Part shown: positions 17,803-32,000 of the stretch, one piece after another
How positions within the stretch are numbered: position 1 is the first letter of the stretch
How the letters are laid out: every line of letters starts with the position of its first letter
Assembly (NCBI RefSeq): GCF_000025925.1
Contig: NC_014033.1
Coordinates: forward strand, 2,070,001 to 2,102,000
Reading direction: 5' to 3'
Origin: Xylanibacter ruminicola 23
GTDB taxonomy: Bacteria > Bacteroidota > Bacteroidia > Bacteroidales > Bacteroidaceae
DNA: 32,000 nt
Position numbers and translations under genes: made by a program
The notes under the pieces: generated by a model
The model's input: the letters and a program-made list of their open reading frames with translations, nothing else
What the model was told of the DNA's origin: nothing
Database searches by the model: none

Positions 17803-18384
17803 TCACGAACCTGTCCCTTGGCTTTTTGACTCATCCTTTTTCAACAACTCTATTAATTTATATACCCCAGTGGATGGGTTCTGCAACTCCTTAAGATTCA
17901 TTGCCCTTGCAGTTGCTGTATCAATATTGCTCTTCAAAAAAGCTTCTTGCGTATCAGTAAAGTCCGTCTTCGAATAATTCCTCCAAACAGTCGCACTCTT
18001 CTTTAGTTCTTTAATGAGCGCATCTGTCGAAATAGCACTCTTTTGATCTTTTGCATGAAGCAGTATCCATATCTCGAAACAAGGATTACTAAGCAGCATC
18101 TCAGCTTTGCATGCCAATAATTTCTCATTAATAGATGGTACATCCATGTCATACATCAGGAACGTGTGTACCTTATCATATTTTGAGAGCTTGAGTTCCC
18201 TAGTGCGATTGTCTACAAGAGACTGCGTAATTTTAGTTCCTTCAATATGCGACACGATTCTAATTGGCGACTTATACCACTTCTTCAGGAGGTTTATATA
18301 GCGTTCTTCTGTTTCGCCCTCGCAGATTACAAGAGCAATTTTGCGCATCCGCATGGATGGGGATGGTTCTCTTTTACTTGCCAT
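17803..18384 (-). CDS. RloB-like (Toprim-like) protein, AbiLii-like partner of the upstream ATPase
   Basis: N-terminal IALVICEGETEERYINLL and central LLSNPCFEIWILLHA match my recollection of the RloB family signature. The ATG at 18384 lies 2 nt after the ATPase stop. Confidence 0.75.
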   Translation of the reverse strand: MASKREPSPSMRMRKIALVICEGETEERYINLLKKWYKSPIRIVSHIEGTKITQSLVDNRTRELKLSKYDKVHTFLMYDMDVPSINEKLLACKAEMLLSNPCFEIWILLHAKDQKSAISTDALIKELKKSATVWRNYSKTDFTDTQEAFLKSNIDTATARAMNLKELQNPSTGVYKLIELLKKDESKSQGTGS

Positions 18385-18386
18385 AG

Positions 18387-19616
18387 TCAACCTTCCAATA
18401 ATTGTTTGATACTAGAAACCGATGAATCTACATATGGTACAGCATCAAAACGCCCCTGCAAATAGCCCTTTTCGGCATCCATATTCTCGCGAAAATCCTT
18501 AAAGTCGTATAGTGAATATACATCTGTCGCTCCCTCTTCAGTCTTATTCACAAACACAATCTGGTCACGTCTCAACCTCCTTACATCAATTAGGTTCGTA
18601 TTGTGCGAGGTAAACAGTAATTGACTACTTTCGGAAGCGTGAATCAAATCCAGGATAAAATCAGCAAGGCGAGTATGAAGTCCCATATCAAACTCGTCCA
18701 TGATAATGCCTTTCTTATTCTTCACAACATCCAGCAAACGGATAAGAATCTGGAACAACTTTCGTGTACCATTAGATTCTTCCATATCCATGTCGAACAT
18801 AACATCCTTCTGATTGCGGTGGAATGTCTTAAATCTAAGTACATCCACTAACTTATACGACATCTCTGGTTGCCCAGGAATAGCTACAGGGGCAGGTACC
18901 TGTTCCTTTCTTGCCTCTATATCAGTAATATCTGTATCGCTTATCTCCAGAGCCTTAAGGATAACCTTTTTGTAAGTATTAAAGCTATCCAGCATCATCA
19001 TATCATTTACATTCACAAGTCCAAGAAGGAACTGATTCATGAAATAGCGATAAAGCTTTTGAGCAATCTCACGATTCATAGAACTGGCACGACTAAGGAA
19101 AAGATTCTTCACGCTCGTATTAGTGGCAACATCCGAAGGCTTTACCATTACGCCGGTACCAAAGCTATATTTCCCCTCGGCGTCACGAACAAAAACTTTT
19201 GCCCTCCTACCAACAGGATAATAATACAGACTTTCACTAAGAATACGCTCGCGAGTAAGTTCAAAGGAATATTCGTATTCCACATCCTCACATACAAAAT
19301 CAATCAAGAATTTGCTTGGTTTATTCTGCCATCCATCAAACTTAAATGGCTCGAAATTAAAGGTCACGCCCTCATTATGTAGGTGCGACTCAAGAATCAT
19401 TCTACAGCAAAAAGTGATAGCTTTCAGGATATTTGACTTACCTGAAGCATTAGGGCCAAACAGCCCAATCGATTTAAGCACAGGCACACCTTTCCACTCC
19501 ATAACATTGTGACTCAGCTCTCGAGCAAGTGCTGTATTAATGCTTGCAGCCCTAAAGTCAATCCTGATTCTGTCTCTGATAGAGAAGAAATTCTCAAATT
19601 CGATTTTAAGTATCAT
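18387..19616 (-). CDS. AAA_21/ABC-type ATPase, AbiLi / PARIS AriA-like
   Basis: N-terminus MILKIEFENFFSIRD, Walker A GPNASGKSN, Walker B IIMDEFDMGLH, and downstream LLFTSHNTNLID. Start trimmed from the ORF-track TTG 19646 to ATG 19616. Confidence 0.8.
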   Translation of the reverse strand: MILKIEFENFFSIRDRIRIDFRAASINTALARELSHNVMEWKGVPVLKSIGLFGPNASGKSNILKAITFCCRMILESHLHNEGVTFNFEPFKFDGWQNKPSKFLIDFVCEDVEYEYSFELTRERILSESLYYYPVGRRAKVFVRDAEGKYSFGTGVMVKPSDVATNTSVKNLFLSRASSMNREIAQKLYRYFMNQFLLGLVNVNDMMMLDSFNTYKKVILKALEISDTDITDIEARKEQVPAPVAIPGQPEMSYKLVDVLRFKTFHRNQKDVMFDMDMEESNGTRKLFQILIRLLDVVKNKKGIIMDEFDMGLHTRLADFILDLIHASESSQLLFTSHNTNLIDVRRLRRDQIVFVNKTEEGATDVYSLYDFKDFRENMDAEKGYLQGRFDAVPYVDSSVSSIKQLLEG

Positions 19617-19643
19617 TACATCATTGATTTTGTAGATTTTCTG

Positions 19644-19651
19644 CAAAAATA
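19644..19651 (-). promoter_or_regulatory. -7 promoter box TATTTTTG upstream of the ATPase/RloB operon
   Basis: Plus strand caaaaata, reverse complement TATTTTTG, 28 nt upstream of ATG 19616. Confidence 0.45.
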
Positions 19652-19742
19652 CAACTTTAATTTGATTTTTGTACAGTTTTACATAAAAAAGTAGTTACAA
19701 CACACCTATTTTTAACAACGGTTAATAATTCAACAATATTTT

Positions 19743-19973
19743 TTATTCATATTGATTCTTACGTTTATACTCTTCCATTAGCGACAAGAGTCTTCTAAAC
19801 ATTTCAAGTCGTTCTGGTTTCATTTTACCAGCATTAAGAGCCTTCCTATTCGCCTTTAGCCAGTTAAGCATATCATGATCTTCAATCCGATGGCGGGATG
19901 GATTGCGGTGGTTGCTATCTATGTAATCAACCACCTCATTGTATCTTGTCAACCAACGTTCGTCTTGCGTCAT
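19743..19973 (-). CDS. Helicase-associated (HA) domain minigene
   Basis: 76 aa. The W...Y...V..Y...N.RNPS.......L.NWL..NRK..NAGKM..ER...F..LL pattern fits a single HA-domain repeat. Confidence 0.6.
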   Translation of the reverse strand: MTQDERWLTRYNEVVDYIDSNHRNPSRHRIEDHDMLNWLKANRKALNAGKMKPERLEMFRRLLSLMEEYKRKNQYE

Positions 19974-20052
19974 ACTTCAAACAATCAACTTCAGACTTCT
20001 AGCTAATGCCCCCTTAGCTACGTAGACTTCTGAATTGACCGTTTACTCAACT

Positions 20053-21024
20053 TTAATTAGCACCCTCTTTATCTGAAGATTTATATAATAGGTAATACTT
20101 GTTAATTCGTCGGACTTTAAAAAACACAATTATTATTGTTGGCAATAAACCAATTGCCAATGGAACGCTTAATCCTAATAAAAATGACATAGAACGAAGA
20201 TTCATCCGCTTATATTGAAATACAGGAACATACCGTTTTCTAAATTCATCAATATTAATTTTTTTCGGTCGTAATTCAAGACAAAAATCTTTTATTGAAC
20301 GACTATTAAGTTCTATCATATTATCATCAGAAACCATACATGAATATTCCATTCCTGTTTCGCAATCTTTATAAATCACATCATCAGAATTATCGAATAG
20401 CAACACGCCTCCATAAAACAAAGACAAAACTATTACATTTGCTAAAACTAACAAATAAAAACGTCTCATCGGGATATAACTACGCAACTCATCCCCTTTT
20501 TCAACATCACATGTATTTTGAATACGATGAGAAAAAGTAATCTTGCGATGTAAGTCATTTAAGGAAGACAATTTCTTCTCATTCTCATATTCCACAAGTG
20601 CTTGGAGCTTTATATATTCATTAACACGAAATAAACCAAAACACAAAGAGGCATTTCTGTTGGTTTCATTTGTTATCGAGAATTGAGCATCAACACCCTC
20701 GGAACAAGAATCTATCTTAACATCTAACCACTTATAACCTTCTGGAAGACACATATGAACCACGTTATTACTTCCTGTCAAATCGGCATCACCATTACAA
20801 GAAATGATTCCACTCAGTAATATTACATTATTTCTTATTGGTTTGTCATTCTTAAGGACCTCTATACTATCAAAACCCTTGATCAAGTTCCAATATATAT
20901 TGATTGTTTCAGAAGGATAATATGTCAACTTGCATGGTCGACGCTTTCTCTTAAACAAATCAATAGATAAAACTCCAAAAACAATTGTCGCAATTAAACC
21001 AAGTATTCCAATAATCATTTCCAT
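20053..21024 (-). CDS. Hypothetical membrane protein with three predicted TM helices
   Basis: 323-aa ORF in very AT-rich DNA. Hydrophobic segments IIGILGLIATIVFGVLSIDLF, FYLLVLANVIVLSLFYGGVLLF and FLLGLSVPLAIGLLPTIIIVFF. No family recognised. Confidence 0.6.
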   Translation of the reverse strand: MEMIIGILGLIATIVFGVLSIDLFKRKRRPCKLTYYPSETINIYWNLIKGFDSIEVLKNDKPIRNNVILLSGIISCNGDADLTGSNNVVHMCLPEGYKWLDVKIDSCSEGVDAQFSITNETNRNASLCFGLFRVNEYIKLQALVEYENEKKLSSLNDLHRKITFSHRIQNTCDVEKGDELRSYIPMRRFYLLVLANVIVLSLFYGGVLLFDNSDDVIYKDCETGMEYSCMVSDDNMIELNSRSIKDFCLELRPKKINIDEFRKRYVPVFQYKRMNLRSMSFLLGLSVPLAIGLLPTIIIVFFKVRRINKYYLLYKSSDKEGAN

Positions 21025-21224
21025 CTATTCAGATATTAATACTATTAATTTAAAAAAATGCTACTAAATCAAAATGAAAGAACCAGCCCCTAAGGCATCT
21101 ATAAGTACCTGTATCATATCCGTAAATCCAAACATTCTCATTATTCGTAATACTCGTAGTCCCTTATTGATTTCCGATATCAGAAACTCTCCTCCATCCA
21201 TCTCCTAAAGAGAGGAAACGGCCA

Positions 21225-21503
21225 TCATTTCTCATAATACCCCTTTTCGCTATACTGAGACCAGCGGAGGTACATCTCTTGATAATGTTCCTTGATAAAC
21301 TCAGAGATTTTGGAAATCTCACGGTCATTGAGAATGCCGCGATTCTGGAGAACGGTATCACCGTTGTTCTTAACGAAGAATTTTGCTGATCCACCCTCGG
21401 TTAGCTTACTGTCACTAGCATGCACATGCATACACTCCACAACACAGAAAGAAGTAAAATACAAGTAATAACCTGCCACTTTAAAATCATAGTACTTCGG
21501 CAT
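21225..21503 (-). CDS. DUF4160-like small protein
   Basis: 92 aa. MP start, aromatic beta-strand region and the MHVHA His motif resemble DUF4160. Starts 3 nt after the preceding gene. Confidence 0.55.
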   Translation of the reverse strand: MPKYYDFKVAGYYLYFTSFCVVECMHVHASDSKLTEGGSAKFFVKNNGDTVLQNRGILNDREISKISEFIKEHYQEMYLRWSQYSEKGYYEK

Positions 21504-21506
21504 CGT

Positions 21507-21728
21507 TCAGTCCTCCATAAATTTAAGATTCTGTTTGAGGTAACGACTGGCTATGGATAGTTCGATATCGTCCATAGTAGTTTCCAGCACCTCACCATCC
21601 AAACTGAACACAACAGCCTTATCAGGACTGTTCAGGTTAAGCACATGTATACAATCATCCTTGCGGGTAAATGCATACCCATTAACAATTATATCTGCCC
21701 CATCGGCAATGCTCTTAATATCAGGCAT
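21507..21728 (-). CDS. Hypothetical small protein (73 aa)
   Basis: Tightly packed between the two neighbouring genes: 8-nt overlap upstream and 3-nt gap downstream. No family recognised. Confidence 0.5.
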   Translation of the reverse strand: MPDIKSIADGADIIVNGYAFTRKDDCIHVLNLNSPDKAVVFSLDGEVLETTMDDIELSIASRYLKQNLKFMED

Positions 21729-22029
21729 AAGCTATACGTACTTTTTTTATTGGTTTTAAAAAGGTTTCTGAATCGATATATAATCCCTCGAGAATTGGCT
21801 TCAAGTCAATGTACTCCTCCTCGGGTTCTGCATTATGGATATACTTGGCCAGCACCACCAGATAGCCATTATCCCACTTCACAACATCCACATACCTTTC
21901 CAAGCTATATGGTGCTTTGAAACGGATATGATACCCTCCAAAGCAGAAAGCAGTAAAGCCATCCGAATTACTAAGAATAGCTTCATTACTACAACTGGTA
22001 GAGTTTTTTGATATCGATGTTGTTACCAT
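21721..22029 (-). CDS. Hypothetical small protein (102 aa), first gene of a three-gene mini-operon
   Basis: ATG at 22029, preceded by a TATCTTTG box. Overlaps the next gene by 8 nt. No family recognised. Confidence 0.5.
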   Translation of the reverse strand: MVTTSISKNSTSCSNEAILSNSDGFTAFCFGGYHIRFKAPYSLERYVDVVKWDNGYLVVLAKYIHNAEPEEEYIDLKPILEGLYIDSETFLKPIKKVRIAYA

Positions 22030-22061: not shown

Positions 22062-22069
22062 CAAAGATA
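22062..22069 (-). promoter_or_regulatory. -7 promoter box TATCTTTG upstream of the small-gene trio
   Basis: Plus strand caaagata, reverse complement TATCTTTG, 33 nt upstream of ATG 22029. Confidence 0.45.
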
Positions 22070-22080
22070 ATAATTTATTC

Positions 22081-22165
22081 TCAAAATTATAGCATCTTAT
22101 ATTCAAAATACGCCAAAATTATATCAAATTATATTAAAAACATCAAAAATTATACTAAAATTATA
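22081..22165. repeat. Five direct copies of (C/T)AAA(A)TTATA within 85 bp, just upstream of the trio promoter
   Basis: Copies at 22081-22091, 22114-22123, 22125-22133, 22144-22154 and 22155-22165. Several reverse complements read TAATTTTG, which itself matches TAnnTTTG. Confidence 0.6.
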
Positions 22166-22213: not shown

Positions 22214-22239
22214 AAAAAAGAAAACCAGCACTCATGCTG
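22214..22239 (-). terminator. Weak terminator candidate after the Abi-alpha operon
   Basis: On the minus strand: CAGCA-TGAG-TGCTG (5-bp stem) followed by GTTTTCTTTTTTG. Confidence 0.35.
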
Positions 22240-22349: not shown

Positions 22350-23132
22350 TCATTCAATACACGCATTCAGAAAAAGTCTGCCAAAAGGCGTTAAGCGAAT
22401 AAAACTTTCCTCAACATCTATCGATTTAAACTTTTGGGGAACAAGTTCATTTCTTAAATCGTCTAACCCATTTTTCTTATTAATAGCATCATAGTTTTCC
22501 CTGTATATCTTATATTCACCAGACATATCTACGAGAAGCCCCAGGCTTATAAGATTATAAATATACGCATTCATATTTTGGGGAAATGTAATTTTCGCAT
22601 TATCATCCAGCAATGTCAAATGTTCTTTCAGTTTAACAAACCCTTCAGCATCATTCAAATTTGCATTGTAAGAACAATATTCCCAATCTCTTTTATACTG
22701 AAAGCATCTCATTATCCTCGCTTCATCTGGAGAGATTCTCTCTATAATTGATACAAAAGATGGGTGTGCAGTATTAACCATATCCACACTTGAAGCATTA
22801 GCCAACAAAGTTGTAAACATGTCGGCAATTTCTTCATTTGTTGTGTAAGTAAGCTTCTCAATAATTGGTGTTCCTAATTGGGGATGAACCTTACATCTCT
22901 TTTCCTCAGGAATCTTTTCCAATTTTTCTTTATAATCATCAAGATTCTTTTTAAAAGTCATTTTCAACTTCTCATTTTTCAACTTTAAAGGTAACAATAT
23001 TGCAGTACTAAACTCAAATACAGTACCTAAAGCATTACCAATGGCCCTCACACTTGGCTGTGCCAAATCTTTATAGATCTCTCCCAGAATATTTGGGGTT
23101 GCTTTTACTATGTCAACTATTTCATTTTCCAT
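22350..23132 (-). CDS. Abi-alpha (DUF4393) family abortive-infection-like protein
   Basis: 260 aa. The N-terminal region (IVDIVKATP...YKDLAQPSVRAIGNALGTVFEF...IPEEKRCKVHPQLGTPIIEKLTYTTNEEIADMFTTLLANAS) follows the Abi-alpha family pattern as I recall it. Starts 1 nt after the upstream gene. Confidence 0.7.
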   Translation of the reverse strand: MENEIVDIVKATPNILGEIYKDLAQPSVRAIGNALGTVFEFSTAILLPLKLKNEKLKMTFKKNLDDYKEKLEKIPEEKRCKVHPQLGTPIIEKLTYTTNEEIADMFTTLLANASSVDMVNTAHPSFVSIIERISPDEARIMRCFQYKRDWEYCSYNANLNDAEGFVKLKEHLTLLDDNAKITFPQNMNAYIYNLISLGLLVDMSGEYKIYRENYDAINKKNGLDDLRNELVPQKFKSIDVEESFIRLTPFGRLFLNACIE

Positions 23133-23133
23133 T

Positions 23134-23793
23134 TTATATTTTATCTCTATTGTTGATTGATTTTTTTACTGAATCTGGTAAGATTTCGTACAACGACTCG
23201 ATTTCTTTTGGTTCAGAAATCATACGTTCAGTAATCATATTAATAAGGTGCATTAACGTAATTGCAGTATTCATATCATCAACATCGAAAGATATCACAC
23301 CAGGGTGAACAGCTTTATTACCCACAACACGGACTACATCCAATGCTTGTTGAATGATCTTTGGAAGCCCTTTCATAACAAGAGCACCAATATTATTATT
23401 AATATCTCTATCTACTTCTCCAAGCTCATTACATAGTCTATCTATCGCCAAACGCAATAAAGCGCAAGCAGCCCTAGGAGACTTATTATATATAAGTCCA
23501 GCTTCATTGTAGAGTTGTTTCACCCTTTCGGGCATATCAACATTAGGTTCTTCAGCAATAATATCAGGATACACATAGGTATTGTTAACCCAGATAATCT
23601 TTTTCCCACAGCTAACACATCTTGCTATAGATAGTTGATTACTGTATTCTACTATATTACCGTCCTTTGTAAAGACATTACTAGTATCCTCATTAAAATA
23701 ATGAGTAGCCCAGGTCATTAATGACAAAGTATGGCAATGAGGACACGTAAAGGATTTCTTCCTTTTCTCTGGTGCGACATATAAATTTCTCAT
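23134..23793 (-). CDS. Zn-ribbon + DUF4145 (HEPN-like) domain protein
   Basis: N-terminal CPHC...(41 aa)...CVSCG cysteine pairs. DUF4145-like core PRAACALLRLAIDRLCNELG and an R-x2-GN-x3-H motif (VRVVGNKAVH). Confidence 0.65.
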   Translation of the reverse strand: MRNLYVAPEKRKKSFTCPHCHTLSLMTWATHYFNEDTSNVFTKDGNIVEYSNQLSIARCVSCGKKIIWVNNTYVYPDIIAEEPNVDMPERVKQLYNEAGLIYNKSPRAACALLRLAIDRLCNELGEVDRDINNNIGALVMKGLPKIIQQALDVVRVVGNKAVHPGVISFDVDDMNTAITLMHLINMITERMISEPKEIESLYEILPDSVKKSINNRDKI

Positions 23794-23835
23794 ATCACAA
23801 ATGATTACAATCGCAAATTAAAATCACAAAAAGCA

Positions 23836-24273
23836 TCAAATCATCCCAAACAACTTTTCAGCCAGTCTCTTATTTGCTTCCTTCTGACCTATTGCATCCA
23901 AGTCATCATTATAATTTTTCTTTATCCATACCAGTTCGGCATTTATACTCTTGGCATAATTATCCAAAGCCTTACGTCCCCTCCCCTTTGTTCTTGTAAC
24001 AGTAAAAAGGATATCACAAGGATTCTGCTCAACAAACTGAATATTTGCTTTAACAATATCATCAGTATCTCCAGGAGGACATATATCCACAACGATTCCA
24101 TGTCTATCAACAGACTCACACATATCCTTATCTTTACCGAACTTCACTTCTGCATCAGAAATATTAATACCATGAAGCAGACTTCTAAGAAATATTCCTA
24201 GCGTCTCACTTTTCCCACATTTCCCTCTACCGTATAATCCAATAATCTTCATATATTTTTTGTTTTTTATCAT
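23836..24273 (-). CDS. Small P-loop NTPase-like protein (145 aa; start may be the second Met at 24252)
   Basis: Walker A GRGKCGKSE near the N-terminus and a candidate Walker B IVVDICPPGD. Lies 42 nt upstream of the DUF4145 gene. No family recognised. Confidence 0.55.
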   Translation of the reverse strand: MIKNKKYMKIIGLYGRGKCGKSETLGIFLRSLLHGINISDAEVKFGKDKDMCESVDRHGIVVDICPPGDTDDIVKANIQFVEQNPCDILFTVTRTKGRGRKALDNYAKSINAELVWIKKNYNDDLDAIGQKEANKRLAEKLFGMI

Positions 24274-24287
24274 TCTATTTTCCGAAG

Positions 24288-24295
24288 CAAATTTA
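24288..24295 (-). promoter_or_regulatory. -7 promoter box TAAATTTG upstream of the P-loop/DUF4145/Abi-alpha operon
   Basis: Plus strand caaattta, reverse complement TAAATTTG. It lies 15 nt upstream of ATG 24273 and 36 nt upstream of ATG 24252. Confidence 0.45.
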
Positions 24296-24485
24296 AGAAA
24301 AAAAACCTATACTTCCAAATTAAATGCGCGAAAAATTGCTAAAATACGGCATAATATCGCTCCATCCGGGGCTTTTACTCTAAAATTTACAGCAAATTAA
24401 TCTCGATTACAAAGAGAATTCACCTTTTATTATTAAAAAAGCATTATTTTTATCCACAATCGCGAAGAATCTGAAGATTTTTATG

Positions 24486-24493
24486 TAATTTTG
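24486..24493 (+). promoter_or_regulatory. -7 promoter box TAATTTTG upstream of the M42 peptidase block
   Basis: taattttg lies 10 nt upstream of ATG 24503, which implies a very short leader. Confidence 0.4.
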
Positions 24494-24502
24494 CAAATTG
24501 AT

Positions 24503-25537
24503 ATGGAATCATGGTTGAAAGACATATTGCACAAGATGCTACTGACAGCAAGTCCGTCAGGCAGCGAAGAGCAAATCACAGCGCTCTTTGCTGAGCAGTT
24601 ACGTCCCTTTGTAGATGAAGTAACCACCGACGTCAATGGCAACTGCATTGCCCACAAACAGGGCACTGGGCCAAAAGTTATGATCATGGCGCATGCCGAT
24701 GAGATTGGCTTAATGATTAGTTACATTGATGATCGCGGTTTCCTATATTTCAAAGAAATTGGCGGTATCGACACAAATCTTCTCCCCGGTCAGCGTGTAA
24801 ATATCATGGGGCAGCAAGGCCTTGTAACAGGCGTTATAGGCAAGAAGCCCATACATCTTCAGGACAAATCCGAGAACACCAAGCAGCTCGAACCAGAAGA
24901 CCTTTGGATCGATATTGCCGCCAAAGATAAATCAGAAGCACAATCCAAGGTTCAGATTGGTGATGTAGCCACTCTCCAAGGAAATCCTGTACAACTTAAT
25001 GACACCCTTCTCATGTCCCGATCACTAGATGACAAAATCGGTTTGGCAGTCTTGATGGGTCTGGCACAGAATTTGCAGTCCCTGCAAACAGATAAGGACA
25101 TCTATTTAGTGGCCTCCGTACAGGAAGAATTAGGTGCACGCGGTGCAAAAATGATAACTGAGGCTATACGCCCAGATATAGGCATTGCCATTGATGTAAC
25201 CCATGCCACTGACTATCCCACCATGTCACCCACAAAAGATGGTGACATCAGCCTAGGCAAAGGTGCTGTCATCCCTATGGGGCCTAACATGAGTAAAGGT
25301 ATCAACCAGCAGCTCATCAGCTTGGCAAAATCCAATGGCATCCCCTATCAGATAGAGGCCATTGCCCGCCCCACAGGCACCGATGCCCGCGAGATACAGG
25401 TTGCCGGCACTGGCATCCGAACAGGATTGATCAGCATTCCCTGCCGATATATGCACACCCCTTCGGAAGTTGTATCATTGGCAGATGCAGATAGTGCAAT
25501 AACCCTATTGTCGGCTTATTTGCACACTCGAGAATAG
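24503..25537 (+). CDS. M42 family metallopeptidase (FrvX/YsdC-type aminopeptidase)
   Basis: SPSGSEE near the N-terminus, MAHADEIGLMI, SRSLDDKIG and VQEELGARGA are M42-type motifs. Start trimmed from TTG 24491 to ATG 24503. Confidence 0.8.
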   Translation: MESWLKDILHKMLLTASPSGSEEQITALFAEQLRPFVDEVTTDVNGNCIAHKQGTGPKVMIMAHADEIGLMISYIDDRGFLYFKEIGGIDTNLLPGQRVNIMGQQGLVTGVIGKKPIHLQDKSENTKQLEPEDLWIDIAAKDKSEAQSKVQIGDVATLQGNPVQLNDTLLMSRSLDDKIGLAVLMGLAQNLQSLQTDKDIYLVASVQEELGARGAKMITEAIRPDIGIAIDVTHATDYPTMSPTKDGDISLGKGAVIPMGPNMSKGINQQLISLAKSNGIPYQIEAIARPTGTDAREIQVAGTGIRTGLISIPCRYMHTPSEVVSLADADSAITLLSAYLHTRE

Positions 25538-25572
25538 ATAACATTATGTCAAACTAAAAAACGATTGAAAAG

Positions 25573-25683
25573 ATGAAAGAGAATTTTTCTATTTCTTTCG
25601 ATTGGGAAGTTAAGACAGCTGAAGATACAGAGCGCATAGGCGCCATGTACTGCTTCAAGCGCTGCGACGTAAACCAGAACTAA
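25573..25683 (+). CDS. Candidate RiPP precursor peptide (36 aa), absent from the ORF track
   Basis: ATG at 25573 to TAA at 25681-25683 translates to MKENFSISFDWEVKTAEDTERIGAMYCFKRCDVNQN. It has an acidic leader-like N-half and a C-terminal CxxxC. It lies about 100 nt upstream of an RRE+SPASM radical SAM gene. Confidence 0.5.
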   Translation: MKENFSISFDWEVKTAEDTERIGAMYCFKRCDVNQN

Positions 25684-25730
25684 TCCCCTGATCAAGGATT
25701 AGCTTTACCAGCAGCATTATCCCAATTGGG

Positions 25731-25763
25731 TTGAGGTGACAGCAGAGACTGGTGTCACCTCAA
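25731..25763 (+). terminator. Perfect 11-bp hairpin (attenuator or terminator candidate) between the peptide ORF and the radical SAM gene
   Basis: TTGAGGTGACA (25731-25741) and TGTCACCTCAA (25753-25763), with an 11-nt loop, followed by TTATTAAATTT. Confidence 0.5.
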
Positions 25764-25786
25764 TTATTAAATTTGAACCACATGAC

Positions 25787-27124
25787 ATGAGGCAGCATTC
25801 TCAACTACAAAGCACCGACCACCTCATCTTTCCTGATGAGATTATTTTCCGACCATGCGATGAAGGATGGTTGGTTATTTCTGTGCTTACTGCCAACTGG
25901 TTGGTCATAAAATCTAACTTTCAAAAACATCTTCTACAACAGTTGATTAATGGCCACTCTATTGGCGAAGTCTATACATCTTTGCAAACCCAAGACGAAC
26001 AGACTCAATTCAAGCAACTTCTGGCTGCTATCACCGCCCGTAGTTTCGCAGGTATCAACACTGCCCCAGTTTCTCAGTACTTAGAGGGTTATCGCATGCT
26101 TAACATCTACCTCACCAATGCCTGTAATCTGCGATGCGAGCACTGTTTCATGCGCTCAGGTAAGCCATTAGACAACGAACTACCAAAGACAGAGTGGCTT
26201 CGCATCCTTACCGAGTTTCAACACCAGGGAGGTAAAAGTGTAACTTTTTCTGGAGGAGAGCCTCTGATGAACCGCGATTTTAACGACATCCTTATACATG
26301 CATCAACACTTGGTTTAGAAACCACAGTGCTATCTAATGGCATCCTTTGGACCGAGGATCGCATTAATCAGCTCGCCCCATATATCAGTCAGATACAGAT
26401 TAGCATAGATGGTTTCGACGAGGCCTCCAATGCCAAGGTGAGAGGTAAAGGACATTTCGACCGAATTGTGCATAACGTCATACTCTTCGCTAACACAGGT
26501 GCCCGCACATCTGTAGCCACCACCTTTACATTCCAGAATCTCCAGTACGATGCAGCCGAGCGTTATCAGCAGATGGTTAGTTACATCAAGAACCAATGTC
26601 AGCACTCAGTATTCTTCAAACTCAGCAAGAAGGTACTTCAAGGACGCAACACTCACTACACTGAAGCTCAGAACAAGGAGTTTTTCATGCGTATTATGGA
26701 AATTGAGCACGCCTTAGATCCTGATGCCAAGTATAATAACTTCATGGAAGGTCATACCCCTAATCTAATTGAGCGCAACTGTGGCTTTGGCGGTATCTCC
26801 ATAGGTGCCGATGGCGAGGTGTATTATTGCAATCGCATCTCTGAGGTCGATAGCTATGGTAATATCAATGGCAGACCGATAAAACCATTTATGGAAAAAG
26901 GCCATCAGCTCCACCTGCAAACTTCGGTCGATAATCTCATCCCCTGCCGTACTTGCCATCTGCGTTTTATCTGCTGTGGTGGCTGCCGCATTGACGAATG
27001 CAACTTCCAAGGCAAGCTTCAAAACCATACTGGAGCACTTCGACAGGTAAAATGTAACGATGACCAAATACACCGTATGGAACGCAAGATGATAGATAGT
27101 TATTTATTTTATTACAAATTCTAG
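25787..27124 (+). CDS. Radical SAM / SPASM-domain peptide-modifying enzyme with N-terminal PqqD-like RRE
   Basis: CX3CX2C motif NACNLRCEHCF. C-terminal Cys-rich SPASM-like region CGFGG...YYCN...CRTCHLRFICCGGCRIDEC. The N-terminal ~90 aa (GWLVISVLTANWLVIKSNFQKHLLQQLINGHSIGEVY) look like a PqqD/RRE fold. Start set to ATG 25787, because the ORF-track GTG at 25736 lies inside the hairpin. Confidence 0.8.
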   Translation: MRQHSQLQSTDHLIFPDEIIFRPCDEGWLVISVLTANWLVIKSNFQKHLLQQLINGHSIGEVYTSLQTQDEQTQFKQLLAAITARSFAGINTAPVSQYLEGYRMLNIYLTNACNLRCEHCFMRSGKPLDNELPKTEWLRILTEFQHQGGKSVTFSGGEPLMNRDFNDILIHASTLGLETTVLSNGILWTEDRINQLAPYISQIQISIDGFDEASNAKVRGKGHFDRIVHNVILFANTGARTSVATTFTFQNLQYDAAERYQQMVSYIKNQCQHSVFFKLSKKVLQGRNTHYTEAQNKEFFMRIMEIEHALDPDAKYNNFMEGHTPNLIERNCGFGGISIGADGEVYYCNRISEVDSYGNINGRPIKPFMEKGHQLHLQTSVDNLIPCRTCHLRFICCGGCRIDECNFQGKLQNHTGALRQVKCNDDQIHRMERKMIDSYLFYYKF

Positions 27125-27128
27125 ACCT

Positions 27129-29366
27129 ATGATATATCGGTTACTTTGCATCTACGAAACATACGGAAACAGCACCATCCCTCAACTCCGTATCGAAGTC
27201 AATCTGGATGGCAAGAGTTCCTCTTTGGCACCTTTCCAACGCAAGGTAACACTTAGCGACCTTCTGGCCGATGCATCCACAAATGGGCTCCACCCCTCAG
27301 CGCTATGCCAACTAATAAACCATGCAGGCCTTATCAGCCAACCATTCTGTATTGACAGCAGGCTTGTTTGTCACCCGCTTGTTCAGCGCATACTCCAGGA
27401 TCATCCCTATTCTTATGTTAAAGCCACCCCAAAATCCAGCCTCAAGCGCATCGCTAATCCACCTTCTTTCATCCATCCATCGTCTATCGTTTCAAATCTC
27501 GCATCATCCGTTCCATCAGGAGTTCTCTATATAGATAATCCCGCTTCGTGGCACCGCAACATCAAAGTACGTTTTCACTATAACGATGCACTCAGTGATT
27601 TCTATCCCACATACTCACCTCTCCCATATCTTTCTAGCTTAGGTTCGCTCATGCAGCGCAACGAACAGGCAGAAATCGAGCTCTTGAATATGTTAGGCGA
27701 GGATTACAATTCTGCCACAGCCACATTATCATTTAAGGATACAGATACCGAGAGTCTCGCAGAACTCACTAAAAAAGGCTGGACACTCTACGTATCCAGC
27801 CCCAACAAAGCCGCATATAGGCTGTATTACCATCACGAATCATCAGGCATCAACTGGTTCTCTACCGATCAAGATGTTGACCAATCCGAGTTTGCCCATC
27901 AACTCCTTGATGGCTATCTCCATCGTCGCAACTATCATGAGTACGATGGACATATAATATTGTTCAAGAAAGAGGATGCCACGATATCTGATGACAAGAC
28001 ATTGGCTCAGCAGTTAGATGCTTCCTTCGATGTACGTCAACTATATGCCGATTCCCTACCACTCACTAATGCCGAGATAAATGACATTAAAACGACTCTT
28101 ACTAATCAGCTACACGCAACACTGCGCCCCTATCAACTTGATGGAGTTATGTGGTTGCAGCAACAACGTAAAAACAATCATGGTTGCCTCTTAGCTGATG
28201 AGATGGGCCTTGGCAAAACCATTCAGATTATTGCCCATCTATGTTGTTTGGGTAATGATAGACAGCACCTGATAATTGCCCCCACCTCTTTAATATATAA
28301 TTGGCAGAACGAGGTTAGTAGGTTTGCGCCGCAATTATTACAACAGCTCACCTTTGTAAGTTACGATATGCTGCGCATACATCTTTATGAATATCTGCCA
28401 GTGTTTTACGATACAATTATAATCGACGAGGCTCAAGTGATAAAGAATCGTCAAACCAAGAAATATCAGGCCATTAGCCAATTACATTGTAAACACAAGA
28501 TAATCCTTACAGGCACTCCTATCGAGAATTCCATTGATGAGCTTTGGTCGCATTTCATCATGCTCATGCCCCCTATGCAGTCACTCTATCATCACTTGCA
28601 TGCATTGGGTATTCAAGCTGTGCCCGAGGTATATATCACTCTATCCAGCAAGTTTCTAAAGCCTTTCATACTTCGTAGAGAAAAGCAAATGGTACTACAA
28701 GATTTGCCAGACCGTATTGAGAAGACTGTATATATTGAACTTAACGAATCCGAACGAATCAAATATAAACAGGTGCATGCCACTATACTCCAAGCATTCG
28801 CTTCAGGAATAAGTGGCCGTATTAGTAGTTTGGCCTTAGAGGGCCTTCTTCGTTTACGCCAGGCTTGCATCGCTCCTAAGTACCAAACAGTTATCGACTA
28901 TATTGAGACGTTTCGTTCTGAGGGGCGCAAGGTTTTACTTTTCTCTCAATTTGTCAGCGCACTTCACGAGTTAGAGGCACGTTTGTCATCAGCAGACATT
29001 CACTTTGTAACTCTATATGGAGACACCCGTAATCGCGACATCCCTGTACGCCAGTTCCAAAGCGATTCTTCTATCACTGTATTCCTTATCAGCCTTAAGG
29101 CTGGTGGTTTCGGCCTCAATCTCACCTCTGCCGATCGAGTTATTCTTTTAGACGACTGGTGGAATCCTGCAGTCGAAGACCAAGCCATGGCACGTGCTCA
29201 TCGCATCGGCCAGAAGAACAATGTTCTTGTTCTCCGATTAGTCTGCAAAGACACTGTCGAAGAAAAAATTCTTCAACTTCAAGCTCAAAAGCGCCAAACC
29301 GTCGATCTCTTCAACAACACCTCAGAGAAGCTAACTTTAGAAGAGATTCAAGCCCTGATTACCTAG
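27129..29366 (+). CDS. SNF2-family helicase/translocase with bacterial SNF2-associated N-terminal region
   Basis: LRPYQLDGVMWL, LLADEMGLGKTIQ, DEAQVIKN, LTGTPIEN and SLKAGGFGLNLTSADRVILLDDWWNPAVEDQAMARAHRIGQ. The N-terminal part includes a GINWF...DGHIILF segment like the SNF2_assoc domain. Starts 4 nt after the radical SAM stop. Confidence 0.88.
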   Translation: MIYRLLCIYETYGNSTIPQLRIEVNLDGKSSSLAPFQRKVTLSDLLADASTNGLHPSALCQLINHAGLISQPFCIDSRLVCHPLVQRILQDHPYSYVKATPKSSLKRIANPPSFIHPSSIVSNLASSVPSGVLYIDNPASWHRNIKVRFHYNDALSDFYPTYSPLPYLSSLGSLMQRNEQAEIELLNMLGEDYNSATATLSFKDTDTESLAELTKKGWTLYVSSPNKAAYRLYYHHESSGINWFSTDQDVDQSEFAHQLLDGYLHRRNYHEYDGHIILFKKEDATISDDKTLAQQLDASFDVRQLYADSLPLTNAEINDIKTTLTNQLHATLRPYQLDGVMWLQQQRKNNHGCLLADEMGLGKTIQIIAHLCCLGNDRQHLIIAPTSLIYNWQNEVSRFAPQLLQQLTFVSYDMLRIHLYEYLPVFYDTIIIDEAQVIKNRQTKKYQAISQLHCKHKIILTGTPIENSIDELWSHFIMLMPPMQSLYHHLHALGIQAVPEVYITLSSKFLKPFILRREKQMVLQDLPDRIEKTVYIELNESERIKYKQVHATILQAFASGISGRISSLALEGLLRLRQACIAPKYQTVIDYIETFRSEGRKVLLFSQFVSALHELEARLSSADIHFVTLYGDTRNRDIPVRQFQSDSSITVFLISLKAGGFGLNLTSADRVILLDDWWNPAVEDQAMARAHRIGQKNNVLVLRLVCKDTVEEKILQLQAQKRQTVDLFNNTSEKLTLEEIQALIT

Positions 29367-29367
29367 A

Positions 29368-29706
29368 TTACAAATTCTCCTTCACATAGATTGCCACACT
29401 GATTCGTTTATTTTCATCAGCTTTTTCATCAAAACGACAGACTTTACATAGGAACAACTTATTATCATTCCATCCTGCCTCTAAAAACTTCTTAATGTCT
29501 ATCGCATCATTTTTATTCAGAACGCCAATTTTTTTTGCATCCTCCGGATTTTGAGCTTGAGTGTAAAGTGACACTTCCTTCCCGTCTTCATTAACATCCA
29601 ATTTGAAAAGAAAATTTGTTCCTAATTCTTTTATTTCCTTTAAAACCTCTAGTGCCTGGAACTGGTTAGTTTTTTCCAAATAACATTCTTTCAAATATAT
29701 ATCCAT
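29368..29706 (-). CDS. Hypothetical 112-aa protein co-transcribed with the deaminase (weak HIRAN-like resemblance)
   Basis: Starts 11 nt after the deaminase stop. The segment VSLYTQAQNPEDAKKIGVLNKNDAIDIKKFLEAG...RISVAIYV loosely recalls the HIRAN pattern (NPxD, IGxL, basic/hydrophobic C-terminal strand). This is a low-certainty call. Confidence 0.5.
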   Translation of the reverse strand: MDIYLKECYLEKTNQFQALEVLKEIKELGTNFLFKLDVNEDGKEVSLYTQAQNPEDAKKIGVLNKNDAIDIKKFLEAGWNDNKLFLCKVCRFDEKADENKRISVAIYVKENL

Positions 29707-29717
29707 AATTTCAATAA

Positions 29718-32000
29718 TTAATGTTTAAACCTTTGCTCTAATGACATTTGACGTACACGATCAAGCCAGTCAACGATAGCCCTGGGTGAATTCTTATGAT
29801 TCTCTGTCTGATTCCATTCTAAAGCCAATGCTAATAAAGAATATTCTCTTTCCAAAGATGTTGAAAACACGCCCTGATCATCAGTATTAATGGACACTGC
29901 AATATCGTGACGAGGATAAGGTGTAGAAAGCCCATAGTTAAAAAACTTCACTATAGGATGTTCATCGTAACGTTCTATCTCGCCAATCTTGTAGTTGGAT
30001 GAAGGATTGCATTCGATGGCAATATGCCTATTTTCAATCTTTTCTAACAATTGTTCCTGTATTTTTTCAAGCAATCTTACCCACTCTTCCCTATAATCTA
30101 GAGGAATTGTTAGAGTATCACCAACATTCCCCTTATCTGCATATCTATCAGAATGATATGCATCGTAAAGTCGTTTTGCGCGTTCGTTGCGTAGTGCGAC
30201 CTCAGTCCATTCATGATGATTGATGGCTGCCTTAACCCAAAGATAATCAATACCAGTCAAACTATTAAGATTCTTTGGTTCTAGATCCACACCAATTTTA
30301 GGAGAATGGCCTCTTAACAACCATGATAAGTAATAGTCCCGTATATCATCCGATAGTTCATCTTCATTTTCTTCTGTAAAAAAGGAATCAATGATGCTCT
30401 CACCTTCTTCCTCGTGATTCCTGTATATTTCTGTAAAATACTTCAAGAACATAATCTCTAACCACCCACATAGCTGTGTATATCCTGTCAAACGAATGCA
30501 TTTATGGTAAAGCCAAGCAAGATTATCCAACACGACCTGTTTACTTGCACAGATAGAGAAGCTACGCTTTGTATAATACTTAAGCACATCTGTTCCAAGA
30601 ACAAGAGCGTGGCCTAATCTGTCTCCATTCTTCAAATTTAGGAATATAAGCGCTTCTTCCACTGCTCTTAATCCATCTGCTATATCCATAAAATCCTCAC
30701 CTATATGATAAGTAACGTTTAGGTCGTCAGGATAACTATCCACATTATTATCATTCTCGATTTTATGAGATCTAAGAAATCTAAAAGCCTGCGCATACAC
30801 TTCTGGTCGGCAGAATATCTCAGAATTGGCAGCATCTAAGCCAACCACTTTACCTACCAGACAATTACCGTCTTTCCAATTATCCTTGTTACACCTAAAC
30901 TGATATATAGCATAAGCCTGTCTTTTTATTTGCTGGCGCAGATCATAATGCCTATATGATTTGTTTTTCCTCTCATCTCGCTGTTTAATAAAATGGAATA
31001 TAAAATCATAGTTATCAGTATATTTAGGATCTATCTCTTTACATATATCATTAAGCATTTTCACTATACCTGCTTCGGTTTCTTTGGGTACAATTCTAGC
31101 CTCCAAATGTCGCTGGTTATTTTTATCCTTTTCCAAAAAGCCTTCTATGGCAGCTTTGTATAGCAGATGATAATATTCATCTTGTATGAAATCTGTTTTC
31201 TTCTCTTCATAACTGGCAAAGTTAGCAAAGCCTACACGTTCATTAAGCTGCAGAATGTCATTTCTAAAGTAATTCTTATATGCCAAATATGCAAAGAAAA
31301 GAGTCGCAAGGTCCTGCTTTTCATTCGTTTTATCATTAAATAAGGTTTTAAATACCATATACATTAATTTTCTCTCCGAAGCAAGAACTTTGTTTTCAAT
31401 AGACTCACCACTATAATGACTAATAGGTATATAATCTAGGACGTCTAATTCAGTCAGATTATCTTTAATGTTGGGATTTGTTTTCAACTTATTAAACTCC
31501 TCAATACTTTTCACTTGATTGCATTTCCTTGCTTCACTAACTAACCCAAATACATCTACCGGCTCTTGACTCTTAGTTTTATCGTAGGTAACGTTATTCA
31601 ACTCATTACATAATTGGCCTAATGTAATTATCTCTTTCACACAGCCTACGGCTCCTGCCAAATAATAGCGGATAAGTGCCGCCTTTCGCATCTTCTCATA
31701 TAAGTCCTTATCGCTATCTCTATATTTATGGAATGGATACTCCTTCTCAAAGTGGCGCTGCATACACCAAATATTATTCATCATGCATTGCCAACTCAAA
31801 TCGAAATTAAACGACGAACCCTTCAAATGCATATGGAGTTCCGCCATAGGCTTTTCAAAAAGGAAGTTAAGTTCTTTGCTGTTATGGCCCAAGAATGCAT
31901 CCCAATCAAAACTCTTACGTTCATATTCTATGGCCAAGTCTCTTGAAGCCAAGAAAGAAGTTGTCAGTAAATCCTCCCCGACCAACGTTGTTAGCAGATG
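29718..32000 (-). CDS. Giant adenosine/AMP-deaminase-fold protein, RdrB (RADAR)-like; 5' end outside the window
   Basis: Ordered metal-dependent deaminase motifs ELHMHLKGS, TYHIGEDF, RLGHAL, ECNPSSN and SINTDDQGVF. About 390 aa separate HxH from HxGE, against about 200 in canonical ADA. The ORF-track start is TTG at 31985, but the frame stays open to 32000 (HLLTT upstream). Confidence 0.8.
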   Translation of the reverse strand, partial: HLLTTLVGEDLLTTSFLASRDLAIEYERKSFDWDAFLGHNSKELNFLFEKPMAELHMHLKGSSFNFDLSWQCMMNNIWCMQRHFEKEYPFHKYRDSDKDLYEKMRKAALIRYYLAGAVGCVKEIITLGQLCNELNNVTYDKTKSQEPVDVFGLVSEARKCNQVKSIEEFNKLKTNPNIKDNLTELDVLDYIPISHYSGESIENKVLASERKLMYMVFKTLFNDKTNEKQDLATLFFAYLAYKNYFRNDILQLNERVGFANFASYEEKKTDFIQDEYYHLLYKAAIEGFLEKDKNNQRHLEARIVPKETEAGIVKMLNDICKEIDPKYTDNYDFIFHFIKQRDERKNKSYRHYDLRQQIKRQAYAIYQFRCNKDNWKDGNCLVGKVVGLDAANSEIFCRPEVYAQAFRFLRSHKIENDNNVDSYPDDLNVTYHIGEDFMDIADGLRAVEEALIFLNLKNGDRLGHALVLGTDVLKYYTKRSFSICASKQVVLDNLAWLYHKCIRLTGYTQLCGWLEIMFLKYFTEIYRNHEEEGESIIDSFFTEENEDELSDDIRDYYLSWLLRGHSPKIGVDLEPKNLNSLTGIDYLWVKAAINHHEWTEVALRNERAKRLYDAYHSDRYADKGNVGDTLTIPLDYREEWVRLLEKIQEQLLEKIENRHIAIECNPSSNYKIGEIERYDEHPIVKFFNYGLSTPYPRHDIAVSINTDDQGVFSTSLEREYSLLALALEWNQTENHKNSPRAIVDWLDRVRQMSLEQRFKH

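Follow-up and report, generated by a model that had tools for sequence, protein, structure and literature searches.

The stretch of Xylanibacter ruminicola 23 DNA analysed here (contig NC_014033.1, positions 2,070,001 to 2,102,000; 32,000 nucleotides, called the window below) carries three closely packed genes on the minus strand, which we name g1, g2 and g3: they encode a small P-loop protein, a homologue of the anti-phage RNase RAZR and a member of the abortive infection (Abi) family Abi-alpha, respectively. Protein matches of 100% identity agree with the assignment to Xylanibacter (Prevotella) ruminicola. As first called, g1 is an open reading frame (ORF) of 145 amino acids (aa; 24273..23836). 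It is followed, after a spacer of 42 nucleotides (nt; 23835..23794), by g2 with 219 aa (23793..23134) and, after a single nucleotide (23133), by g3 with 260 aa (23132..22350). On the same strand, 5' of g1, lies TAAATTTG (24295..24288), a putative -7 promoter box of the Bacteroidota type. It is the sole match to TAnnTTTG on the minus strand from position 22350 to 24300, and the box is kept in three related contigs, as TAAATTTG in L075 and L084 and as TATATTTG in L074. Across the whole window, the motif is not enriched (29 occurrences observed, 23.4 expected), and a single match is therefore weak evidence. A scan for sigma-70-type promoters was made as well, which is uninformative for Bacteroidota. 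On the 3' side of g3, a hairpin, CAGCA-TGAG-TGCTG (stem-loop 22239..22226), followed by GTTTTCTTTT (together 22216..22239, minus strand), may act as a terminator, and the next TAnnTTTG boxes on the minus strand are found only past this hairpin and its T-run. The three genes resemble each other in composition, with a GC content of 0.34-0.37 and a GC content at third codon positions (GC3) of 0.28-0.30, as compared to a GC3 of 0.5-0.6 for core genes. Judged by this layout, they are probably co-transcribed, with one promoter driving three separable genes. A preliminary description of the DNA had reported the same arrangement, i.e. three minus-strand genes with spacers of 42 and 1 nt behind one promoter box, and all of these features are present.

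By its sequence, g2 is a homologue of RAZR that combines a zinc ribbon of the Cys4 type with an RNase domain of the DUF4145/HEPN type. Matches were obtained with the PADLOC model PD-T7-4, along its entire length (6.2e-71, residues 4-218), with the Pfam model DUF4145 (4.8e-16), and with the RAZR chain of PDB entry 9y9c across both domains (E=7.5e-40, residues 12-218). The zinc-ribbon residues C17, C20, C59 and C62 are invariant among 21 homologues and align with CPHC...CSHC of 9y9c; likewise, R155 and H163 of the motif R155-VV-GN-KAV-H163 are invariant and align with R146 and H154 of RAZR at an identical R-x7-H spacing. All features that define RAZR membership at the sequence level are thus found in g2: the Cys4 ribbon, a DUF4145 domain with R-x7-H, and full-length similarity. 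At E≤1e-10, more than 5,000 clusters belong to this very large family. The discovery of PD-T7-4 goes back to Vassallo et al. 2022 (PMC9519451), and the protein from Escherichia coli UMB1727 has been renamed RAZR, for ring-activated zinc-finger RNase (Nature 2026; PMC13017515). RAZR works as a single protein: it builds a 24-mer on phage proteins that are themselves ring-shaped (T7-type portals and Gp77 of SECphi27), and once activated it cuts single-stranded RNA with the catalytic residues R146 and H154, halts translation and aborts the infection. It detects the phage ring proteins itself and requires no NTPase partner (PMC13017515). Both g2 and the E. coli protein have 219 aa and a two-domain plan, and the ribbon, the linker and the DUF4145/HEPN domain can be aligned end to end. 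The differences concern the host, which belongs to another phylum (Bacteroidota), the oligomerisation pair D179/D180 of E. coli RAZR, which is T-E in g2 in an alignment judged by eye, and the genomic setting: the E. coli gene often overlaps an integrase gene, whereas the Bacteroidales genes lie in a restriction-modification (R-M) operon or a defence island and are often followed by Abi-alpha.

The third protein, g3, is a member of the Abi-alpha family. It covers positions 3-196 of the 196 positions of the Pfam model Abi_alpha (PF14337, DUF4393; 7.2e-46) and matches PADLOC PDC-S47 with residues 1-259 (1.6e-99). Moreover, its AlphaFold2 (AF2) model, which is of moderate quality overall (pLDDT 73.6; residues 130-260 good, residues 1-46 of low confidence), is related to PDB entry 3H35 in a Foldseek search (E=7e-07, probability 1.00). 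The same entry has been named as a structural relative of the founding Abi-alpha protein, EF2833 from prophage 6 of Enterococcus faecalis V583, which alone confers Abi with premature lysis of infected cells (PMC6356687). We looked to the structure of g3 for the mechanism of Abi-alpha; its sole match, 3H35, is uncharacterised and gave no functional lead. EF2833 and g3 share the Pfam family over the whole model, a similar length (272 and 260 aa) and the relation to 3H35, and PADLOC treats Abi-alpha (candidate PDC-S47) as a single-gene system; a literature search for the name PDC-S47 gave no match. Unlike the prophage-borne EF2833, g3 is chromosomal, not on a prophage, and comes from a Gram-negative host; some 40-50% of its clade, which has about 400 clusters, is joined to RAZR within type I R-M operons. 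DUF4393 genes have been reported to be strongly enriched as targets of programmed inversion, with an odds ratio of 23 (PMC9881135), and this enrichment may be linked to their position beside invertible hsdS genes. Programmed inversion around g3 itself was considered and rejected: the inverted repeats are short and imperfect (16-17 nt, 88-94% complementary), and none brackets the gene.

For g1, the second ATG (position 24252) agrees with the NCBI model and with nearly all homologues, which have 133-140 aa and begin with MKII. The ORF of 145 aa given in the preliminary description is therefore present, but the start of the gene is most likely at 24252, giving a predicted protein of 138 aa with the coordinates 23836..24252. 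The protein has a Walker A motif, GRGKCGKS, and a Walker-B-like motif, VVDICPPGD. Both motifs are invariant, and the residues G8, G13, K14, S15 and D56 do not vary among 20 homologues. In the AF2 model (pLDDT 86, pTM 0.81), strands 2-8 and 53-57 precede the Walker A and B motifs, so that g1 has the hallmarks of a P-loop protein: strand 1 leads into GxxxxGK[ST], and a hydrophobic strand ends with the acidic residue of Walker B. Beyond this, the family stands apart: searches of g1 against Pfam, NCBIfam, PADLOC and PHROGs were negative, the g1 profile found nothing below E=0.5 among PDB sequences, and Foldseek against PDB returned weak similarity to SIMIBI-type folds (BchL/NifH, MobB, SRP54/FtsY; best E 0.0099) and also to designed P-loop proteins. 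When ten remote relatives, fusions included, were scanned against Pfam and their source names were looked up, nothing past a generic P-loop emerged. An assignment of g1 to a described P-loop family was thus rejected, as neither sequence nor fold searches gave an adequate match. By profile search, the family comprises 915 clusters at 50% identity, and it has neither a Pfam model nor a source annotation. Its members are almost all stand-alone proteins of 135-145 aa and only a few are fused to longer proteins; one such fusion has 563 aa and a metallo-beta-lactamase domain. With respect to the three proteins, the preliminary description was accurate: the Walker A motif, the two CxxC pairs of g2 (C17/C20 and C59/C62) and its R-x2-GN-x3-H motif are present and invariant in the family alignments, the domain calls (P-loop, zinc ribbon plus DUF4145/HEPN-type RNase, Abi-alpha) hold, with Pfam matches for DUF4145 (4.8e-16) and Abi_alpha (7.2e-46), and the genes belong to anti-phage defence.

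What could not be sustained is the proposal built on these observations, a new three-component system made of a sensor/NTPase, an RNase effector and an Abi component. The survey of gene neighbourhoods which the preliminary description had itself suggested, and in which a failure of the trio to co-occur was to count against the idea, covered 60 species-representative genomes with RAZR relatives and 80 metagenome loci with Abi-alpha relatives of the clade of g3. In these, g1 was found at none of the 60 RAZR loci and at one of the 80 Abi-alpha loci; a search of all ORFs of the 140 loci with a g1 profile hidden Markov model gave a single match, in the metagenome contig L084 (OCTW010665392.1), and the other 139 loci lack g1. 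L084 is 92-93% identical to the window at the DNA level. The trio was seen only in near-identical relatives, i.e. in the contigs L075 and L076 and, with RAZR deleted, in L084; in the relatives that carry it, g1 is about 90-96%, g2 87% and g3 96-97% identical to the proteins of the window. Co-occurrence of all three genes across diverged genomes was not observed. In close relatives, g1 is frameshifted in L075 to L077 by an insertion of 1 nt and in L084 by a different one, and the RAZR gene of L084 has lost most of its length to a clean in-frame deletion of 525 nt (window positions 23247-23771), with Abi-alpha left intact.

The pair formed by the other two genes does recur. Abi-alpha directly follows RAZR in 11 of the 60 species-representative genomes (49 lack Abi-alpha) and no other gene is found behind RAZR as often (11 of 56 downstream neighbours). 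Of the 68 metagenome loci that could be evaluated, 33 have RAZR 5' of Abi-alpha. When the Abi-alpha loci are grouped into 42 clusters at 90% identity, 15 have RAZR, 24 do not and three are mixed; on viral contigs, the pair occurs on two, Abi-alpha alone on four and RAZR alone on six. The gap within the pair is 1-21 nt in all 40 intact pairs, and after dereplication the pairs represent 26 lineages of gut and rumen Bacteroidales. The pairwise identities of the RAZR and Abi-alpha proteins are correlated (r = 0.74), a value that is reached in none of 2000 label permutations, which argues that the pair is inherited as a block, and it holds together down to about 50% (g2) and 39% (g3) identity. As to its context, the pair comes after HsdS in 30 of 36 cases and before an HsdR-sized gene in 27 of 34, and the others follow type IIG Eco57I-like enzymes, g1 or other genes. 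Abi-alpha is also found alone after HsdS, and RAZR, in the same position of R-M operons, can have AbiH, SIR2, HNH, Schlafen/AlbA or unknown genes just as close behind it. We conclude that RAZR and Abi-alpha form a recurrent tandem cassette in Bacteroidales, with a conserved order, strand and spacing and with co-divergence of the two proteins, but that the association is not obligate.

The recurrence of this tandem, usually between hsdS and hsdR, is the new result of our work: in the paper on RAZR (PMC13017515) and in Vassallo et al. 2022 (PMC9519451) we came across no account of the pairing with Abi-alpha or of the neighbourhoods of RAZR, although DUF4145 genes "in operon with R-M" were already reported in a survey of HEPN domains in 2013 (PMC3710099). 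Of the combination that the preliminary description had regarded as undescribed, the pairing of DUF4145 with Abi-alpha has a counterpart in other genomes, and the mini P-loop protein as their conserved partner does not. In the window there are no hsd genes, and its own pair does not have the location between hsdS and hsdR. Among the other passengers of Bacteroidales type I R-M operons that accompany RAZR (L014 to L073), we noted SIR2 (with an overlap of 4 nt), Schlafen/AlbA_2 and an unknown protein of 134 aa; in Poribacteria, RAZR lies between the methylase and HsdS.

The comparison of neighbourhoods gives a different picture for g1, as about ten different cargos are found downstream of its homologues. 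Behind g1 homologues there are an RdrB-like deaminase set (L001), a 410-aa gene with Pycsar and TIR (L004), an AAA_15/DUF3696 gene (L007), Gabija (L010 to L013), a 119-aa gene near a Mu-like transposase (L078 to L083), an AbiJ/DarT island (L164), a 551-aa gene with NACHT and OLD-TOPRIM (L165), and a Metallophos/WD40 giant (L173), and a distant relative precedes GmrSD (L175). Another distant member (L167 to L172), present on more than 100 contig blocks, is located within a polysaccharide locus and has no adjoining defence gene. The distance from g1 to its cargo varies from 42 to 317 nt. Polysaccharide genes border g1 in most of its contexts, and in the window a Bac_transf gene closes the island. 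Judged by gene order, g1 would be a framework gene at the border between a polysaccharide locus and a defence island, with no specific tie to RAZR or Abi-alpha.

Taken together, we consider it probable that separable modules are stacked at this locus and happen to be served by one promoter, within a horizontally acquired defence island, with RAZR and Abi-alpha acting autonomously and g1 as a non-specific member. This interpretation is based on homology, gene order, co-occurrence statistics and composition, from which co-transcription, the mechanism of RAZR in this host, the phenotype of Abi-alpha and any role of g1 are inferred. Four observations speak against a specific partnership of g1 with RAZR and Abi-alpha: its presence in one of 140 loci, the roughly ten cargos, the position of a distant member within a polysaccharide locus, and the frameshifts in L075 to L077 and in L084. 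In the same way, the separability of RAZR and Abi-alpha follows from the 11 of 60 and 33 of 68 loci in which they are joined, from the viral contigs (two, four and six for the pair, Abi-alpha alone and RAZR alone), and from the deletion of RAZR in L084. Against these arguments stand several observations. In L074, the junction of g1 and RAZR is seen at 74-78% protein identity, without Abi-alpha. The frameshifts in g1 fall into short homopolymer runs of low-coverage metagenome assemblies and may be assembly errors. The 1-nt junction of g2 and g3, their significant co-divergence and the occurrence of the pair in at least three contexts fit a coupling of RAZR and Abi-alpha as well. Equal GC3 (0.28-0.30) in all three genes and the lack of a promoter box between them suggest that g1, g2 and g3 may have arrived together and may be co-expressed. 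Finally, the experiments cited for RAZR and Abi-alpha come from E. coli and E. faecalis.

The strongest of the competing explanations is that RAZR and Abi-alpha are a functionally coupled two-gene system, in which Abi-alpha might come into play after the activation of RAZR, adjust its oligomerisation or widen the range of triggers, with g1 as a bystander. The gaps of 1-21 nt in 40 of 40 pairs, the 26 dereplicated lineages with their correlation of r = 0.74 (0 of 2000 permutations), the persistence of the pair to about 50% (g2) and 39% (g3) identity, its occurrence behind HsdS, type IIG enzymes, g1 and other genes, and the rank of Abi-alpha as the commonest follower of RAZR (11 of 56) can all be cited for it. 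Nevertheless, we regard such a coupling as unlikely: each family proved active by itself when tested, whether heterologously or natively (PMC13017515, PMC6356687), 49 of 60 RAZR loci lack Abi-alpha and about half of the Abi-alpha genes lack RAZR, three clusters at 90% identity are mixed, and in L084 RAZR was recently lost and Abi-alpha kept. Moreover, AbiH, SIR2, HNH and Schlafen genes lie just as close to RAZR, so that the narrow spacing does not set this pair apart, and co-divergence is expected of any neighbours that are inherited vertically.

Still less probable, in our view, is that g1 assists any defence cargo downstream of it as a general accessory, for instance by acting as a chaperone or as an NTP-dependent regulator, with RAZR and Abi-alpha as the cargo in this genome. 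The gene does lie on the same strand and upstream of Gabija, Pycsar with TIR, AAA_15/DUF3696, the RdrB-like deaminase, NACHT with OLD, AbiJ/DarT, GmrSD and RAZR, it has the low GC3 of the island, and its Walker A motif and D56 are invariant. However, the distant member in the polysaccharide locus (more than 100 contig blocks) has no defence gene next to it, the gaps to the cargo range between 42 and 317 nt, close relatives with intact cargo carry a frameshift in g1, and the polysaccharide genes around g1 in most contexts fit a boundary or framework gene. Also, to our knowledge, Gabija, Pycsar and RAZR all function elsewhere without a g1-type gene. We give very little credence to an obligate three-gene Abi system with g1 as sensor/NTPase, the DUF4145 RNase as effector and Abi-alpha as third component. 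One promoter box, tight spacing, one terminator and a shared composition suit such a system, and the trio is seen again in L075 and L076 and, with RAZR deleted, in L084. Yet these recurrences are limited to near-identical relatives, g1 is missing from the other 139 loci and has variable cargo, RAZR detects its triggers directly (PMC13017515), and the relatives that keep Abi-alpha have frameshifts in g1 and the deletion in RAZR. The co-occurrence data have already largely refuted this explanation.

If the locus is indeed a stack of separable modules, its action can be outlined by analogy with the characterised members of the families. RAZR (g2) would idle as an oligomer until its zinc-ribbon domains bind ring-shaped phage proteins, for instance portals or ring-forming recombination proteins; assembly around such a ring would switch on the HEPN site (R155/H163), and the cleavage of tRNA, rRNA and mRNA would stop translation and abort the infection. 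Abi-alpha (g3) would serve as a second, autonomous Abi effector. The tandem cassette is inherited as a block and normally placed between hsdS and hsdR, so that restriction would come first, with Abi as its backstop. In this genome, the cassette instead sits behind g1, the gene that precedes whatever cargo has been inserted at the border between polysaccharide-biosynthesis loci and defence islands.

The three genes are part of a low-GC island that extends from about 17.8 to 24.4 kb of the window. The remainder of this defence island, which lies outside the operon and serves as context here (17803..22029, minus strand; Pfam, PADLOC and GC profile), encodes an AbiL-type pair on the minus strand, composed of the AAA_21 ATPase AbiLi (18387-19646; PADLOC 3.9e-81) and the overlapping gene for the RloB-like protein AbiLii (17803-18390; PADLOC 1.6e-22). 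A 323-aa ORF (20053-21024, minus strand) with the lowest GC content of the window (0.315) has hydrophobic N- and C-terminal segments like those of a transmembrane protein and was not matched by any model of Pfam, NCBIfam, PADLOC and PHROGs. After the operon, three small overlapping genes on the minus strand encode DUF7724, DUF7723 and DUF4160 (21225-22029). The same trio is found directly 5' of the distant g1 relative in L175 (995-1826), beside GmrSD and a polysaccharide flippase, and it may be a second framework element of such islands. The 73-aa genes that recur near g1 homologues (L001, L007, L164) were considered as DUF7723 and rejected, as tblastn gave no match. On the 5' side of the DUF7724 gene there are two tandem units of 32 nt (22082-22145), 75% identical and each with a TAATTTTG box, which are adjoined by a TATCTTTG box at 22062-22069.

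On the other side, divergent from g1, the plus strand carries genes for an M42 aminopeptidase, a radical SAM/SPASM protein that weakly resembles prokaryotic viperins and the maturases of sactipeptides, and a SNF2 helicase of 745 aa that resembles DpdE/ZorD in PADLOC (4.6e-96) (24491-29366). This unusual combination is possibly another module, either for defence or for a ribosomally synthesised and post-translationally modified peptide. Facing the SNF2 gene in convergent orientation, the minus strand encodes an RdrB-like adenosine deaminase (2.7e-30) together with an ORF of 112 aa (29368-31985). A set of deaminase, small ORF and SNF2 also lies directly behind the g1 homologue of L001 (6980-10417), and the two regions, 29368-31985 of the window and 6980-10417 of L001, appear to be rearranged versions of one region. 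As to mobile-element borders of the island, the window contains no convincing direct repeats or attachment repeats, and no integrase was found among the window ORFs that were scanned.

The usual home of the tandem invites comparison with the anticodon nucleases PrrC (in EcoprrI) and RloC, which are encoded within type I R-M operons; PrrC is activated by its release from the R-M complex. An Abi RNase gene between hsd genes is just the arrangement that the RAZR-Abi-alpha cassette usually has in relatives. The resemblance ends there: the window has no hsd genes by the pair, it is the phage ring proteins themselves that activate RAZR, and the protein families are unrelated. A second parallel is the general concept of defence-island hotspots that are bounded by conserved framework genes: the defence systems behind g1 differ between strains and species. 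However, g1 has the atypical composition of the island rather than that of a core gene, it is tied to polysaccharide loci, and neither an integrase nor attachment repeats were found in the window.

Two of the three genes are known single-gene systems, RAZR with a solved mechanism and Abi-alpha, and in this respect the locus is mainly a result of annotation. The tandem of RAZR and Abi-alpha in R-M operons is nevertheless a natural setting in which a possible cooperation of stacked Abi modules and the mechanism of Abi-alpha can be studied, and the family of g1, together with DUF7724-DUF7723-DUF4160, marks a junction of polysaccharide loci and variable defence islands in Prevotellaceae that could help to find new defence cargo in rumen and gut metagenomes. 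A bolder version, which we hold to be improbable though worth stating, is that RAZR and Abi-alpha are a cooperating two-protein Abi module of gut and rumen Bacteroidales, usually between hsdS and hsdR, and that, separately, the g1 family is a marker or accessory of the hotspot. The operons would then be three-layered immune operons, in which Abi-alpha may execute or amplify the response of RAZR, or the reverse. If this were true, the cooperation would provide the first mechanistic handle on Abi-alpha, and the g1 family with its about 900 clusters would be a previously unrecognised marker or accessory of the polysaccharide/defence hotspot.

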